From an uncultured Clostridia bacterium (GTDB lineage Bacteria; Bacillota; Clostridia; Christensenellales; UBA1242): DNA of 64,000 bases. Of the stretch, positions 4,833 to 57,214 are shown piece after piece. The notes beneath the pieces were generated by a model. It saw only the letters and a list, made by a program, of their open reading frames with translations. It was not told the origin of the DNA and did not search any database. How positions within the stretch are numbered: position 1 is the first letter of the stretch; every line of letters starts with the position of its first letter. The translations under genes and the position numbers were made by a program. The DNA lies in assembly GCA_934747765.1 (NCBI GenBank), contig CAKVGZ010000003.1, positions 64,225 through 128,224 of the forward strand, given 5' to 3'.

Positions 4833-6266
4833 ATGGACAAGAAAAAAGATTATAAAACCATGCCTCATAGCATTGAAGCAGAGCAATCTGTGCTTGGCTC
4901 GATGTTAATTAATAACGAAGCACCGCTAACAATTTTGTCTGCACTTTGTGCTGACGATTTTTATTCAAACGCAAATAAGATTATTTTTTCGAAAATGCAA
5001 GAGTTGTATCGTGCAAACACACCTATAGATTTTGTCACATTGACTGACATTTTGGATAAGTGTGGTGAACTTGAAAATGTTGGCGGAATTGATTACATAA
5101 CAACTTTGACAAACATTTTGCCATCGGCAACAAACTTTCAATATTATGTTGATATTGTTAAGCGCGATTCGCTTTTCAGAAAATTGATACAAAGCGGTCA
5201 AAAAATAATTGAAAATGCCTATGAAGCAACCGATGACAAAAGTGCATTGAAATTTGCCGAAAAAGAAATTTTTGATATTTCCGAACAACAGGACTTTTCG
5301 TCACTTGAACACATCGACGGCGCCCTTAAAGAAGTTATGGAAAAACTTAATAAAATTGCAAAAGACCCAAATTCTTTGCGTGGACTTTCAACAGGGTTAA
5401 CAGACCTTGACGCAATAACTAACGGTCTTCAAAATTCTGATTTGATTTTGCTTGCAGCTCGTCCTGGTGTTGGAAAAACATCACTTGCGATGAATCTTGT
5501 TAATAATGTTGCCATTCAGGGAAAGAAAAGCTGTGCAATTTTCTCTCTTGAGATGCCTAGAACTCAAATTGCGCAACGTTCAATGTGTTCAATTGGCGGA
5601 GTGAGCATGGAAAAAGCGTTGAAAGGGCAACTTTCTGTTGACGAATGGACAGCGCTTGTTAAAGCCAGCAGAAAACTTTCTGAAGCAAAAATATATATTG
5701 ACGATTCCAGTTTGAACGACCCAAATGACATTCTTTCGAAATGCCGAAGAATAAAAAGAGAACACGGGCTTGATTTGGTTATGATTGACTATCTTCAACT
5801 TATGCGTGCAGACAAAAATTCAAATTATGACAATAAAGTTTTGGAAGTTGGTGAAATAACCCGTTCCTTGAAGATTGCAGCAAGGGAACTTGATGTTCCA
5901 ATTATTTTGCTTTCACAGTTATCTCGTGCTGTTGAATCTAGAAAAGGTGACCATAGACCAGTTCTTTCGGACCTTAGAGATAGCGGTTCAATTGAACAAG
6001 ATGCAGATATTGTTATGTTTATCTATAAACCAGATATGTACAATGACGTTGTGAGCGAAGAACCAGACATTGCAGAATTGATTATTGCAAAGCACAGAAA
6101 TGGTCCACTTGGAACAGTCAAACTTAAATGGGTGGGGGAAACCACAAGTTTTGAAAATTACAGCAAAAGTTATGTGCCAAAAACTGTCGTTGCTCAACCA
6201 ACAGATGACCAAATTGAAGCACCTTTGAGCGAAGATGAACTTAATGAAATTAAAGATTTATTTTAA
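4833..6266 (+). CDS. dnaB: replicative DNA helicase DnaB
   Basis: DnaB N-terminal domain (IEAEQSVLGSMLIN), Walker A (ARPGVGKTS), Walker B (DLVMIDYLQLM) and a RecA-like fold, all at full length. RBS is GGAGAA. Confidence 0.9.
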   Translation: MDKKKDYKTMPHSIEAEQSVLGSMLINNEAPLTILSALCADDFYSNANKIIFSKMQELYRANTPIDFVTLTDILDKCGELENVGGIDYITTLTNILPSATNFQYYVDIVKRDSLFRKLIQSGQKIIENAYEATDDKSALKFAEKEIFDISEQQDFSSLEHIDGALKEVMEKLNKIAKDPNSLRGLSTGLTDLDAITNGLQNSDLILLAARPGVGKTSLAMNLVNNVAIQGKKSCAIFSLEMPRTQIAQRSMCSIGGVSMEKALKGQLSVDEWTALVKASRKLSEAKIYIDDSSLNDPNDILSKCRRIKREHGLDLVMIDYLQLMRADKNSNYDNKVLEVGEITRSLKIAARELDVPIILLSQLSRAVESRKGDHRPVLSDLRDSGSIEQDADIVMFIYKPDMYNDVVSEEPDIAELIIAKHRNGPLGTVKLKWVGETTSFENYSKSYVPKTVVAQPTDDQIEAPLSEDELNEIKDLF

Positions 6267-6546: not shown

Positions 6547-7116
6547 ATGGAACTTAAAGTTTGGGCAAAAACTATGTTGACGGTTCAAAGACATCTTGGA
6601 AAGGTCACCAAGGCGCTAGATCACGTGATTTACAAAAAGGCAATTGCTTCGATGTTTGTCAATTCAAAAAATCTTCACGAAAACAGCGGTGAGGCAGTTA
6701 GTAAATTTATTATTAATTTGATGGACAGCAAAATTAATTTAATCAATCTCAACACTATTTGTGTTAACGGACTTAAAAAAATTGATAAAACTTGCGCTAA
6801 AATTTTGATTTTAAAACATATTGATGGGAGAACTAGCAACGACATTGCAAAATTGCTCGGCTTGAGCGACAGAACTTATTTCAGACGCCTTAACAAAGCA
6901 TATGAAGAATTTGAAAATTATTTAAGGGAGAATAATTTTACAGATGAATATTTTATAAAACGTTATTCATCTGAAGGTTGGATAATGGAAGTTCATGACA
7001 AATGTTTGGAATTTTTTGAAAGTGGAAATTCTGAAAATGAAATTTTTTCTTCAAATTTTGATTGTTTAAGAATTATAAAAAATATAAAAAAATCCATTCA
7101 TTCGTCATATTCATAA
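6547..7116 (+). CDS. phage-type transcriptional regulator with a sigma-70 region-4-like HTH (ArpU/RinA-like late-gene activator family)
   Basis: C-terminal HTH (TSNDIAKLLGLSDRTYFRRLNKAYEEFENYL). RBS is AAGGAG. It sits directly upstream of a terminase gene. Confidence 0.45.
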   Translation: MELKVWAKTMLTVQRHLGKVTKALDHVIYKKAIASMFVNSKNLHENSGEAVSKFIINLMDSKINLINLNTICVNGLKKIDKTCAKILILKHIDGRTSNDIAKLLGLSDRTYFRRLNKAYEEFENYLRENNFTDEYFIKRYSSEGWIMEVHDKCLEFFESGNSENEIFSSNFDCLRIIKNIKKSIHSSYS

Positions 7117-7961
7117 TAATCTTGATGTCGCAGTTTTTTCTTTCTTTTGCGAGGTTTGGATTCTGCTTCTTCCAAAGCGCGTGCGGTGATTTTCGTTGGT
7201 TTGAAAAGAAGATAGATAATCACAACGCATGGCAAACAAACTGCAACAATTATTATTATTTGAGTTGTTGATGGAAGAGAACTGAGTCCACTTTCTTCAA
7301 CTTGATTTGCTGGTGCTTGGGTTGGAACGGTGAAGTCGGGTTCTTCAATTTCTTCAAGAAGTTCGGTGTTTGAAGGAATTGTGGTTAATAGGTCGCAAAA
7401 CGCGCCATAAACGTATCCAAAAACTTCGCTTCCGTTTCTGATATATTTACAATAAAACCAAGTTGATGATTTGTGTGAAATTGCTTCTTCGCCGTCAATA
7501 GTTCCATAATATCTCAAATTTGTTTCGAGAAATGGCAATGTTTCGATTGTGTTAAGACCTTCCGATTGCGACGGGCTTGAACGAAGTGCAGTGCCTCCTG
7601 GAATGAAAACTCGGAAACTTGCATTTGCAAATGGTGTTTGAGGCACTCCTTTAACGCATTTTACTTCACTTTTTTTCACGTAACCAGTTTTATCTAAATA
7701 TCTTGCCGTGAAAAAATTGGAATTTTCACAACTTGAAATTTCAACAAAATATGTTTGAGGGATGACAAAAAAAATGTTTGAAACTTCTTCACTTCCGTTG
7801 GTTGATCGATATAGTTTTACGTTTGATGAAACAATTTGGGCATAGTAAACCTGTGACACAGCGCACACATAAGATGGTTTTGATTTTGGAAGCAAAAGCA
7901 CAGCGACAAGAAAAATTGATATTAAAAAAACAGTTGTTTTCTTAAATATTTTTGCGGTCAT
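7098..7961 (-). CDS. membrane-anchored protein with two SH3b-like domains; hypothetical
   Basis: N-terminal signal/TM, two ~70-aa segments matching an SH3b-like pattern (V.LYRS.NGS...GYVKKSEV), then a C-terminal TM helix and a basic tail. Confidence 0.35.
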   Translation of the reverse strand: MTAKIFKKTTVFLISIFLVAVLLLPKSKPSYVCAVSQVYYAQIVSSNVKLYRSTNGSEEVSNIFFVIPQTYFVEISSCENSNFFTARYLDKTGYVKKSEVKCVKGVPQTPFANASFRVFIPGGTALRSSPSQSEGLNTIETLPFLETNLRYYGTIDGEEAISHKSSTWFYCKYIRNGSEVFGYVYGAFCDLLTTIPSNTELLEEIEEPDFTVPTQAPANQVEESGLSSLPSTTQIIIIVAVCLPCVVIIYLLFKPTKITARALEEAESKPRKRKKKLRHQDYYEYDE

Positions 7962-8037
7962 GCAAAAAGTATATCAGCATTTTTTTAATTCACCTTAAGA
8001 GAAATATGTCTAAAAATAATGAAATTACGGAGATATT

Positions 8038-9495
8038 ATGACAAAAACTGAAATTTTGAAAATGATATATTCAATCGATAAACAACTGAAAATAAAAAGT
8101 TCTCATAATGCAATTGACAAATACAATTCTGGCAACAAAAAACATTTGAAACAACTTGAATTTCACAAATGTTCCAAAAGAAACAGATGGGTGTTTGGTG
8201 GAAACAGAAGTGGAAAAACTGAATGCGGAGCAGTTGAAACTGTTTGGCTTGCAAGAGGAATTCACCCTTACAGACAAAACAAAGATAATATTTCGATTTG
8301 GGTTGTTTCTCTTTCAAAACAAGTTCAACGTGATGTTGCGCAAAACAAAGTTTTTCATTATTTAAAGCCAGAATGGATTGAAGACGTTGTTATGGAAAGT
8401 GGCAGTAAAGATTTCCCTGAAAGCGGAATTGTGGATTATTTGCTGATAAAAAATATTTTTGGAGGCTACAGCCGAATTGGGTTCAAAAGTTGTGACCAAG
8501 GTCGAGAAAAATTTCAAGGAACTTCGCTTAATTATGTGTGGTTTGACGAAGAGCCTCCGCAAGATATATACAAAGAATGCAAAATGAGGGTTATTGACCG
8601 ACAGGGCGAAATTTATGGCACCATGACTCCACTCAAAGGATTGACGTGGGTGTATGACGAAATTTATCTGAATGAAAAAATGGACGATGAAGTTTGGTCG
8701 ATTTGCATGAGTTGGGATGATAATCCATATTTAAACGAAGATGAGATAAAAAGTTTGAAAGCGTCAATGAGTGAAAGCGAACTTGAAACAAGATGCTATG
8801 GAAAGTTCACTGCAGTTGGCGGACTTGTCTATCCTGAATTCGACCCAGACGTGCACGTCATAGACCCGTTCGATGTTCCAAAAGAATGGTTTGACAAAAT
8901 TTCTATTGACCCAGGTTTGAACAACCCGCTTTCAGCTCACTGGTACGCCGTGGACTTTGATGGGAATGTCTATGTGATTGCGGAACATTATCAGGCGGGG
9001 AAAGATATAATTTATCATTCAAATGAAATCAAGCGCATATGCGAAAGTCTTGGTTGGGGAAAAGGCTTTGGAGGAAAATATGAAGCGATTATCGATTCGG
9101 CTGCAAATCAAAGAACTCTTGCAGGTGTTAAAAGTGTGACCGAACTATTTTTGGAAAATGGAATCTATGTTTCGCCGAAGGTTAATAAAGACCTTTTTTC
9201 TGGAATTAACAGAGTAAAATCCTATCTTAGAAATGCCGAGGGAAAATCTCGACTTTTCATTTTCAGAAACTGTGTGAATTTAATTCGTGAAATAAAAGGA
9301 TATTTTTGGGGGAACAATGATGCTCCAACAAAAAAAGATGACCACTCGCTTGACGAACTCAGATATTATATAATGTCACGGCCTGATATTCCCAAAATGG
9401 ACGTCAAAAAGACCGAAATTGAGCGAGATAAAGAAAAACTTATCAGAAAACTTGATTTTGCTAAAAAATCTCAAGGATTTAAAAAGTTTAAATAA
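8038..9495 (+). CDS. terL: phage terminase large subunit (ATPase plus nuclease); orphan
   Basis: Terminase Walker A (FGGNRSGKTECGA), Walker B (LNYVWFDEEP) and a C-terminal RNaseH-like nuclease region with acidic residues. 485 aa. Confidence 0.75.
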   Translation: MTKTEILKMIYSIDKQLKIKSSHNAIDKYNSGNKKHLKQLEFHKCSKRNRWVFGGNRSGKTECGAVETVWLARGIHPYRQNKDNISIWVVSLSKQVQRDVAQNKVFHYLKPEWIEDVVMESGSKDFPESGIVDYLLIKNIFGGYSRIGFKSCDQGREKFQGTSLNYVWFDEEPPQDIYKECKMRVIDRQGEIYGTMTPLKGLTWVYDEIYLNEKMDDEVWSICMSWDDNPYLNEDEIKSLKASMSESELETRCYGKFTAVGGLVYPEFDPDVHVIDPFDVPKEWFDKISIDPGLNNPLSAHWYAVDFDGNVYVIAEHYQAGKDIIYHSNEIKRICESLGWGKGFGGKYEAIIDSAANQRTLAGVKSVTELFLENGIYVSPKVNKDLFSGINRVKSYLRNAEGKSRLFIFRNCVNLIREIKGYFWGNNDAPTKKDDHSLDELRYYIMSRPDIPKMDVKKTEIERDKEKLIRKLDFAKKSQGFKKFK

Positions 9496-55413: not shown

Positions 55414-55450
55414 GTTTGTGTTTGATATAATACAAAACGTAGAAAGAAAT

Positions 55451-55525
55451 GCCCTCATGGTCAAGCGGTTAAGACGTCGCCCTCTCACGGCGGAATCTGG
55501 GGTTCGATTCCCCATGAGGGTACCA
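55451..55525 (+). tRNA. tRNA-Glu (anticodon CUC) with encoded CCA
   Basis: Full cloverleaf: acceptor GCCCTCA/TGAGGGT, 3-bp D-stem with GG loop, anticodon stem TCGCC/GGCGG, loop CTCTCAC, T-arm TGGGG-TTCGATT-CCCCA. Near-identical backbone to Bacillus tRNA-Glu. An extended -10 (TGATATAAT) lies upstream. Confidence 0.85.
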
Positions 55526-55985
55526 TAGTAGAAAACGAAAGAAAGTGTAATACTTTCTTTTTTTTGATTGATATGCAAAAAGGGGAATCGAACTAAGCGT
55601 TAAGAAAAACAATCCGGGGGATTGTTTTTTAGCGCCGGCGTGAAAGCGAGCCCAGCAAGAGGCGAAGACAGGCGAAGCGGAGCGATTCCCCATGAGGGTA
55701 CCATAGTAGAAAACGAAAGAAAGTGTAATACTTTCTTTTTTTTGATTGATATGCAAAAAGGGGAATCGAACTAAGCGTTAAGAAAAACAATCCGGGGGAT
55801 TGTTTTTTAGCGCCGGCGTGAAAGCGAGCCCAGCAAGAGGCGAAGACAGGCGAAGCGGAGCGATTCCCCATGAGGGTACCATAGTAGAAAACGAAAGAAA
55901 GTGTAATACTTTCTTTTTTTGATTGATAAGCAAAGAGGGGAATCGAACTAAGCGTTAAGAAAAACAATCCGGGGGATTGTTATAA
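55505..55985 (+). repeat. three tandem ~178-bp units (starts at 55505, 55683 and 55862; the third is truncated and carries 2 substitutions). Each begins with the 3'-terminal 21 nt of tRNA-Glu.
   Basis: Direct comparison of the three units. Each holds two terminator-like hairpins, an inverted GGGGAATCGAAC T-arm fragment and a GC-rich ~50-nt block. Confidence 0.9.
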
Positions 55986-56013
55986 TATTTTTTCTTTTGA
56001 GAAAAATAAGTTT

Positions 56014-56382
56014 ATGTTAGATAAACGTTGCGAAGAACTTTTGCGAATTGTCAATAAAGAATGCCAAGAAGGGTCATACAAAGTTTTGGAAGTTGATGAC
56101 TTAATTCGTTTAATGCCAAAAAAATTTAAAGTTGATTATGAAACAATAAATCAACTTATGGGATATTTAAAAGCGGGGGAATATGTTTCCGTCAAGTACA
56201 GCGACAAGGAAGTTTTTTGCGTTTCTCCACTCCCACGAGGCAGGCGAATATTTGAAGTTGAAATTGAAGAAAAAAGAAATAAGAAAAAAAGCAAGTTCAA
56301 AAGTTTCTTGCTTTTAACGTTTTATTTGTTACTGATTTTTGGAGTGTCGCTGGGTGCATCATACATTTCGAGAATTATTTAA
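56014..56382 (+). CDS. hypothetical protein with a C-terminal TM helix
   Basis: 122 aa. Extended -10 (TGTTATAAT) at about 55978. Confidence 0.3.
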   Translation: MLDKRCEELLRIVNKECQEGSYKVLEVDDLIRLMPKKFKVDYETINQLMGYLKAGEYVSVKYSDKEVFCVSPLPRGRRIFEVEIEEKRNKKKSKFKSFLLLTFYLLLIFGVSLGASYISRII

Positions 56383-56942: not shown

Positions 56943-57214
56943 CGTTGTTGCACAAATTGCTTTGTTGAATAATTCTAACGAGCCAATATGAATTTTTGCT
57001 CCACCAAAGTTTCCTTAAATCACTTGTTTAGGTCTGCTTAATGATGCTTCCGTCAGGACCTGACATGGTTCACAGTTAAACAATGCTTAAGACCTTGATT
57101 TCAACACAAAAATCATATCTCATACCGAGAAAATTATTCACCGCAACCAATCGTTCAGTCTTGCTGTAGCGGATTGCAAGTTCAGGGCACCGCTGGCTCC
57201 CCACCTAGTGCAAC
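56943..57214 (-). ncRNA. ffs: signal recognition particle RNA (long Bacillus-type scRNA/4.5S with Alu domain)
   Basis: The minus-strand sequence GCACUAGGUGGGGAGCCAGCGGUGCCCUGAACUUGCAAUCCGCUACAGCAA matches the B. subtilis scRNA 5' Alu region. Domain IV is GUCAGGUCCUGACGGAAGCA. The 3' end UUGUGCAAC pairs with the 5' end. Promoter TTGATT-N16/17-TATAAT lies upstream on the minus strand. Confidence 0.8.

Follow-up and report, generated by a model that had tools for sequence, protein, structure and literature searches.

The closest described parallel to the locus analyzed here, a tandem array of 178-nt units directly behind the gene for tRNA-Glu(CUC) in a 64,000-nt stretch of DNA from an uncultured Clostridia bacterium (contig CAKVGZ010000003.1; the whole stretch is called the window below), is the RtT repeat of Escherichia coli, which to our knowledge has been treated as enterobacterial and as specific to tRNA-Tyr. 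The rtT RNA is the product of the repeated units of the tyrT operon and is possibly tied to the stringent response, its mode of action being given as unknown (PMC3318445), and in the account which that source gives of Bosl and Kersten (1991) it is released from the tRNA primary transcript by processing. We propose that the locus in the window is probably a tandem array of an RtT-like tRNA-trailer module, for which transcription, processing, and a function are predicted by analogy. As a repeat it is a variant of the RtT type at tRNA-Glu, and thus at another tRNA and in another phylum than in E. coli.

The array behind tRNA-Glu and the RtT repeats of E. coli

The E. coli tyrT locus is known for a 178-bp repeat in 3.14 copies, each of which carries the last 19 nt of tRNA-Tyr, and our analysis of that locus agrees with this. 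In strain MG1655, rttR and tpr lie downstream of tyrT and tyrV, and Tandem Repeats Finder (TRF) gives the tyrT-tyrV locus a period of 178 and 3.1 copies. The Rfam model of RtT (RF00391) has four matches there, each above 130 bits; its outer stem, GGGGAAGGAU/AUCCUUCCCC, is formed by an inverted copy of the T-arm and the repeated end of tRNA-Tyr, with a tail (CCACCACCA) and a GC-rich structured interior. As annotated, rttR begins 8 nt past the CCA of tyrV and ends with the CCA of the first repeat. Of 5426 complete E. coli genomes, 4726 contain the unit, at 1–9 places each, and about 700 lack it at the sensitivity of megablast. As a separate observation, 18 places with the 178-bp unit are on plasmids.

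In the window, TRF reports a period of 178 nt with 2.7 copies and 99% matches (55505–55981), and there are exactly three occurrences of the tRNA 3′ end GATTCCCCATGAGGGTACCA (at 55506, 55684, and 55862; 0 in 100 shuffles). Both results agree with the threefold repetition at 178-nt spacing given in a preliminary description of this DNA, and the first copy is, as stated there, the real 3′ end of a tRNA, called at the same place by ARAGORN and by Rfam. The common end measures 21 nt with the preceding C, as described, although the string quoted for it had 20 letters. Unit 1 consists of the last 21 nt of the tRNA, a terminator-like hairpin (hairpin 1), the inverted T-arm copy, a second hairpin (P2), and a GC-rich block, and unit 2 is 100% identical to it, as had been noted. 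Two hairpins with T-runs are indeed present in each unit, hairpin 1 recurring at 55711–55743 and about 55889–55920, as is the 12-nt inverted T-arm copy GGGGAATCGAAC (55582, 55760, and 55937). Hairpin 1 may act as a leaky terminator. The partial unit 3 holds hairpin 1, the inverted T-arm copy (55937–55948), and the upper hairpin, and differs from units 1 and 2 by the two substitutions already described and, beyond that description, by a T-run that is 1 nt shorter. The GC-rich block had been placed in every unit, whereas the window has only two copies, in units 1 and 2, the partial unit 3 stopping before the block. The end of unit 3 does coincide with the start of an extended −10-like element, TGTTATAAT, that resembles the element TGATATAAT in front of the tRNA, and the sequence of unit 3 equals that of the empty allele of other strains, i.e., the allele without an inserted unit (compared with L006).

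Piece by piece the two designs nearly coincide: the parts of a unit measure 19+59+10+90 nt in E. coli, against 21+56+9+92 nt in the window. In both, tandem units lie directly behind a tRNA and each contains its last ~20 nt including the CCA (19 nt in E. coli, 21 nt in the window), the repeated end pairs with the inverted T-arm copy in a helix around a GC-rich structured interior, with the acceptor 3′ strand and CCA projecting as a tail, the module is of similar length (119–130 nt against 123 nt), and copy number varies among strains. The equal 178-nt period is partly coincidental, as the corresponding distance is 342 nt at locus L066 and 249 nt in species C, both described below. On the other side, RtT belongs to tRNA-Tyr in Enterobacteria while the array in the window belongs to tRNA-Glu(CUC) in low-GC Clostridia (Christensenellales-like metagenome-assembled genomes, MAGs), and a conserved small open reading frame (ORF) comparable to tpr is absent. 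The window unit also has two intrinsic-terminator-like hairpins, whereas the E. coli unit sequence that was read has none, and termination at the tyrT locus is reportedly Rho-dependent.

The GC-rich cores align with a score of 33 (AGCGCCAGCGAGAGAGCG...GGCGAAGCG in E. coli against AGCGCCGGCGTGAAAGCG...GGCGAAGCG in the window), which is reached by 0 of 2000 mononucleotide shuffles, and the window block has a p of about 0.001 when dinucleotide shuffles are the reference. Wherever the block is linked to tRNA-Glu, all its copies keep 15 of the 18 positions of an 18-mer shared with E. coli, and a variant at the contig locus L064 differs. Judged from sequence, the architecture is common to the window module and RtT, the GC cores are weakly similar, and the two may or may not be homologous.

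Conservation and fold of the module

The part of the array that runs from an inverted T-arm copy to the next copy of the tRNA end, a module of 123 nt, is conserved while the adjoining intergenic DNA is unalignable, in a comparison of the window species, L021, a sister species called species B below, and L066, which is not syntenic. The conserved pieces are the inverted T-arm copy, TAAGCGTTAAGAAAA, a hairpin with a species-specific stem, TTTTTTAGCGCCGGCGTGAAAGCG, and GCGGAG followed by the tRNA end. Both ends of the GC-rich block are conserved across species and its middle is variable. From seven distinct modules of 120–123 nt, RNAalifold gives a consensus in which a 9-bp closing helix, P1 (GGGGAAUCG/CGAUUCCCC), joins 55582–55590 with 55683–55691, followed inward by the long hairpin P2 (55597–55635), a CGU-GAAA-GCG hairpin at about 55640–55649, and a variable purine-rich stretch. 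In P2, GCGUUAAGAAAAACAA pairs with UUGUUUUUUAGCGC, which explains why both blocks are conserved, and P1 leaves free the 3′ tail AUGAGGGUACCA (55692–55703). Consistent pairing was not found in the middle of the GC-rich block.

The support for this fold is of several kinds. The upper stem of P2 exists in three different, fully compensated versions in three lineages; pair counting finds 98.5% of cells paired and five pairs changed on both sides, and the observed covariation score is reached by 0 of 500 shuffles. The first module, M1, has a minimum free energy of −42.6 kcal/mol (z = −3.1), and none of 200 shuffles folds as well. Single-sequence folds give a common three-domain shape in the window, L021, L024, and L066. 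P2 contains two invariant G.U pairs, which would be A.C mismatches on the other strand, and the z-score is −3.1 on the + strand against −2.2 on the − strand. These G.U pairs favor a structure that would form at the RNA level, from the + strand. Of the three explanations offered in the preliminary description, the best fit is that the tRNA transcript is processed into an array of structured RNAs, in view of the conserved foldable module, the compensatory changes, and the RtT architecture, with processing itself predicted from analogy. Rfam scans of the region and of one module by itself, which had also been suggested there, match only the tRNA and a signal recognition particle (SRP) RNA.

Three other candidates found no support. 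A minus-strand RNA antisense to the tRNA end is less favored, given the G.U pairs of P2 that turn into A.C mismatches and the weaker fold. A conserved Tpr-like peptide was rejected: a GTG-initiated frame is open, but the window species reads the repeated tRNA end in a frame other than that of species B or L066. A tRNA-like, tmRNA-like, or split-tRNA fold was found neither by eye nor by ARAGORN.

L066 is a metagenome contig in which the module stands behind a tRNA-Glu variant among entirely different genes, with a period of 342 nt, and the repeated end matches the contig's own tRNA (CGATTCCCTATGGGGGTACCA). Species C (L095:1143–1412 and L096) is syntenic, with a downstream protein that is 74% identical, and its tRNA-Glu end is repeated 249 nt further downstream, as part of a direct repeat of 66 nt. 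The interior, of ~170 nt, is a multi-hairpin sequence unrelated to that of the window, and is closed by a 10-bp helix, CAAGGGGAAU/AUUCCCCUUG, of inverted T-arm copy and tRNA end that likewise leaves a 3′ tail.

Copy number, proposed scheme, and alternatives

About 70 related loci from at least four species were compared overall, on contigs from human-gut metagenome assemblies and MAGs labeled Clostridia, Firmicutes, or Christensenellales, and exact look-ups of two flanking proteins gave a same-species set of 20 loci. The comparison of related strains suggested in the preliminary description shows that 0, 1, or 2 units are inserted. Within the species, there is no insert in L004, L006, and L020, one inserted 178-nt unit in L001, L003, L005, and L016, and two in the window and L013. 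The empty allele has the order tRNA, hairpin 1, inverted T-arm copy, hairpin 2, and gene, with no GC-rich block. Two scaffolds have N-gaps exactly at the array, which indicates that assemblers struggle with the repeat. Species B, whose downstream protein is 84% identical, has the same 178-nt step and the same range of states, with no insert at at least four loci (including L072, L084, L088, and L102), one insert at 16 loci, and two at at least four (including L067, L070, L087, and L091). As copy number varies in this way, the triplication itself is a variant at the level of strains.

The repeated blocks run past the tRNA, and measure 47, 66, 122, or 168 nt by species. The direct repeat, of tRNA end and downstream region, is 122 nt in the window species and only 47 nt in species B (the tRNA end and 26 nt), in which the unique part is 131 nt. 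Filled alleles hold 52–131 nt with no counterpart in empty alleles, and across the ~70 loci there are only 52–185 nt between the repeats. Change of copy number by whole units fits unequal homologous recombination between long direct repeats. The base unit itself is not a product of slippage, since its GC-rich block (52 nt; in species B, 131 nt of unique sequence) is missing from the empty alleles.

Two side observations concern species B. Between the DUF4364 gene and tRNA-Glu it has two extra genes that the window species lacks, for a double zinc-ribbon (DZR) protein of 171 aa and a protein of 143 aa (L067–L093, e.g., L068:606–1567). In its filled alleles the insert cuts short the terminator hairpin that belongs to the tRNA, which should raise read-through into the module.

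We propose the following scheme for the locus. The basic state, observed in several related species, consists of tRNA-Glu(CUC), a weak terminator hairpin, the ~123-nt module, a second copy of the terminator region, and the next gene. The module begins with the inverted T-arm copy and ends with the last 21 nt of the tRNA in direct copy, and these ends pair as a 9-bp helix that closes the long hairpin and the GC-rich domain and leaves the acceptor 3′ strand and CCA free. With the tRNA end and its downstream region present in duplicate, unequal homologous recombination would add or remove whole 178-nt units. Transcription from the putative tRNA promoter TGATATAAT would most probably read through the AU-rich hairpin 1 into the module, by analogy with the E. 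coli rtT RNA, and as each repeated tRNA end has the same trailer behind it, it would undergo the same 3′-end processing, with trimming at the repeated CCA by the tRNA 3′-end machinery. The predicted product is a stable folded RNA that ends in the tRNA-Glu acceptor strand and CCA, and it could be either a by-product or a decoy or regulator of factors that recognize uncharged tRNA ends. We infer these processing steps from the analogy with rtT RNA, in whose annotation the 3′ end falls on the CCA of the tRNA end where it is first repeated. A looser parallel is provided by tRNA-trailer small RNAs such as 3′ETS-leuZ of E. coli, which is likewise released from a tRNA transcript, namely from its 3′ external spacer; RNAs of that type, however, are short unstructured sponges that contain no copy of the tRNA end and are not tandem.

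A number of observations weigh against this proposal. Transcription and function of the module are predicted from sequence and from analogy. Empty alleles persist in both species and the module is thus dispensable, and the two terminator-like hairpins per unit mean that read-through may be low. A consensus scan finds no consensus sigma-70 −35/−10 promoter inside the units. The structural support comes from only 4–5 independent lineages, and the covariation of the hairpin could arise from terminator function alone. In some strains of species B (L024 and L025) the repeated tRNA end has 1–3 mismatches, so that the tail is not strictly constrained. As for the link with E. coli, RF00391 (gathering threshold 45 bits) has no match at E ≤ 10 to the window module, whether in 3.5 kb or in 151 nt, and none in L064 or L066. 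In the reciprocal search, with a covariance model (R1) of the Clostridial modules, the E. coli copies are matched at the right place and on the right strand, but the score of ~9 bits (E about 2) is not significant. The similarity of the GC cores is also weaker for the blocks of other species (p = 0.02–0.2).

An account that we consider unlikely takes the module to be a non-autonomous mobile or recombination element, acting as a folded single strand at the DNA level, in which the P1 duplex would imitate the T-arm of the target in its double-stranded form. Its insertion at the tRNA T-loop would be carried out by a recombinase or transposase encoded elsewhere, each insertion duplicating the tRNA end, and the junction of the 178-bp circle would be GCGGAG joined to CGATTCCCC (GCGGAG/CGATT). 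The tRNA identity does begin inside the T-loop, as at T-loop integration sites, a class in which identity is said to start there, and the interiors differ by lineage while the ends obey one rule. As an analogy, integron attC and CTX attP sites likewise have a pair of inverse core and core that imitates a double-stranded target, with a core at each unit boundary; unlike the attC case, there is no integron integrase here, cassettes are not variable, and the length of the repeats is in the tens to hundreds of nt instead of 7. The duplicated flanks of the array, long and variable (47–168 nt), are also unlike target-site duplications or att cores.

The distribution of the module can be read in both directions. 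It stands behind tRNA-Glu in the non-syntenic L066, and a variant near SRP RNA and tRNA-Arg in L064 is flanked by a 64-nt direct repeat of another sequence, as a mobile element might be, and in E. coli the tyrT/rttR region had raised coverage in a mobilome study. However, no further copy of the unit exists in the 64-kb window or in the fetched loci. The unit has no BLASTN match in phages and a single 35-nt chance match, in Vibrio, among plasmids; the GC-rich block has no match in IMG/VR viral contigs or JGI metagenomes, and the conserved left half of the module none in viral contigs. Nor is an integrase, recombinase, or transposase Pfam family found among the 47 ORFs of at least 150 aa in the window, which agrees with the preliminary description. 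Homologous recombination fully explains the changes of copy number, and the G.U pairs of P2 favor structure at the RNA level. The likening of rtT-like elements to BIME/REP repeats (bacterial interspersed mosaic elements and repetitive extragenic palindromes; PMC2965389) would also suit a mobile origin, and REP/BIME sequences are similarly GC-rich, hairpin-forming, and intergenic. They differ in that the module has no dispersed copies in the window or the fetched loci and occurs in a low-GC genome, and in that REP sequences are not tied to tRNA ends.

Quite unlikely, in our view, is that the array is a neutral, strain-specific tandem duplication of the tRNA trailer by slippage or unequal crossing-over and has no function. 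In favor of this are the 100% identity of units 1 and 2, the differences in copy number between strains of two species, and the viability of empty alleles. Free variation among isolates, which had been named in advance as a sign of mere slippage, is therefore what we found; the unique sequence and the cross-species conservation, on the other hand, speak against slippage. Such duplication accounts for the step from one insert to two but not for the unit, as the GC-rich block cannot be derived from the empty allele. Furthermore, the module ends, P1, and P2 are conserved across species with unalignable spacers, and the filled state persists in several species even though loss by recombination is irreversible.

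That the repeats are scars (attL/attR) of serial integration and excision of a lost tRNA-targeting island or prophage, another explanation offered at the outset, is very unlikely and did not stand up to the comparison. The locus does share with attL/attR sites of tRNA islands and prophages the direct repeats of a tRNA 3′ end, an identity that starts in the T-loop (at C56), and presence/absence polymorphism. Between the repeats, however, there is no cargo, as had been noted for the window, at any of the ~70 loci of at least four species, nor is there an integrase in the window. The repeats continue 26–147 nt beyond the tRNA, the 52–131 nt between them are kept as a conserved folded structure with compensatory changes, and the identical design in E. 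coli is an expressed RNA. Finally, we give almost no credence to decayed tandem copies of tRNA-Glu, in which the GC-rich block and the repeated 3′ end would be a pseudo-tRNA with its 5′ 54 nt diverged: the period (178 = tRNA 75 + spacer 103) and the place and approximate length of the block (48–54 nt) would suit a tRNA 5′ part, but ARAGORN and the Rfam tRNA model find one tRNA only, in-register identity is 13/54, local alignment of the block to the tRNA 5′ part is no better than shuffles (p = 0.25–0.65), and a sharp boundary separates 100% identity from random similarity.

The RtT design is now seen behind tRNA-Glu in abundant human-gut Clostridia, where it has at least two different interiors and natural 0-, 1-, and 2-copy alleles. 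Comparison can thus separate the constrained parts (the long hairpin, and the helix that is closed with the end of the cognate tRNA) from those that are free. The finding also suggests a simple search rule for more such elements, and offers natural knock-out alleles for tests of function. A bolder and rather doubtful extension is that RtT-type modules form a cross-phylum class of tRNA-trailer elements, in each of which a structured RNA would be closed by an inverted T-arm copy and a direct copy of the 3′ end of the cognate tRNA, with ends re-templated on that tRNA (Tyr, Glu, and perhaps Arg) and with an exchangeable interior, which may be the E. coli RtT core, the Clostridial AGCGCC...GGCGAAGCG core, or the unrelated core of species C. 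If true, such a class would imply either a mechanism that copies tRNA ends, by recombination or based on reverse transcription, or strong convergent selection for a mimic of the tRNA 3′ end, which might sense or titrate factors that read uncharged tRNA ends. Were the modules homologous or mechanistically generated, an unrecognized process would be acting on the ends of tRNA genes.

Features of the locus, its surroundings, and a variant elsewhere

Table 1. Coordinates of features at the tRNA-Glu locus, numbered from the first letter of the window.
Feature	Position	Strand	Basis or remark
Extended −10-like element TGATATAAT, putative tRNA promoter, no −35	55423–55431	+	read from sequence
tRNA-Glu, anticodon CUC, CCA encoded	55451–55525	+	ARAGORN; Rfam RF00005, 60.5 bits
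Repeat unit 1, 178 nt	55505–55682	+	TRF; repeat-family search
Terminator-like hairpin 1 (AAACGAAAGAAAGT / ACTTTCTTTTTTTT), directly 3′ of tRNA	55533–55565	+	inverted repeats; AU-rich stem
Module M1, 123 nt	55581–55703	+	RNAalifold consensus
GC-rich block, 52 nt, AGCGCCGGCGTGAAAGCG...GGCGAAGCGGAG (AGCGCC...GCGGAG)	55631–55682; copy 55809–55860	+	
Repeat unit 2, 178 nt, opens with second tRNA 3′ end copy (55683–55703)	55683–55860	+	TRF
Module M2, identical to M1	55759–55881	+	
Partial unit 3, 121 nt	55861–55981	+	third tRNA 3′ end copy, 55861–55881
Left half of third module: inverted T-arm copy, TAAGCGTTAAG, upper hairpin; without GC-rich block or closing strand	55936–55981	+	
Extended −10-like element TGTTATAAT, putative promoter of 122-aa gene, overlaps last hairpin	55978–55986	+	sequence
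Uncharacterized 122-aa gene, downstream of array	56014–56382	+	

The window is low-GC chromosomal DNA (~34% GC), and a scan with ARAGORN and RF00005 finds a single tRNA at the locus. The element before the tRNA is similar to an 11-mer at 55977 in the repeat-family search, and the position of TGTTATAAT is kept in both empty and filled alleles. The two extended −10-like motifs may serve as promoters of the tRNA and of the 122-aa gene, and as they have no recognizable −35 the consensus promoter scan is blank in the region. Upstream of the tRNA lie a ParC/GyrA-like gene and the DUF4364 gene, and ~1 kb downstream of the array the minus strand encodes a large (Bacillus-type) SRP RNA (56948–57213; 154.7 bits).

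The variant in L064 (290–900; metagenome contig ERZ779888 NODE-25966) comprises the left half of the module (AAGGAATCGAACTAAGCGTTAAG, hairpin, and TTTTTTAGCGCCTGCGTG), lies ~320 nt behind an SRP RNA and tRNA-Arg(CCT), and has no repeated tRNA end. The SRP RNA directly precedes the tRNA that stands before the variant. The inverted T-arm copy and its flank (reverse complement GTTCGATTCCTTT) resemble the T-arm of tRNA-Arg, and the variant is followed by a 64-nt copy (757–820) of a sequence that lies 277 nt upstream (480–543). Model R1 scores it at 39 bits. L066 (900–1510, minus strand) and L064 (400–700) share further conserved intergenic pieces behind tRNAs, for which Rfam has no match: a hairpin GTCGAGC...GCTCGA followed by a T-run, a long hairpin ATACCGACCAAACGC...GGTCGGTA, and an element GCAAGTGCG.GGT...GCGGTAGC.

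Far from the array, the window also contains an ORF with a Terminase_6N match (8038–9495; E = 3e-17) and, near it, a small ORF with weak matches to sigma-70 region 4 and helix-turn-helix (HTH) domains (6547–7116). Together with several ORFs that have no Pfam matches they make up a group (6547–9495) that adjoins DnaB (4833–6266) and may be a phage-derived remnant or satellite.

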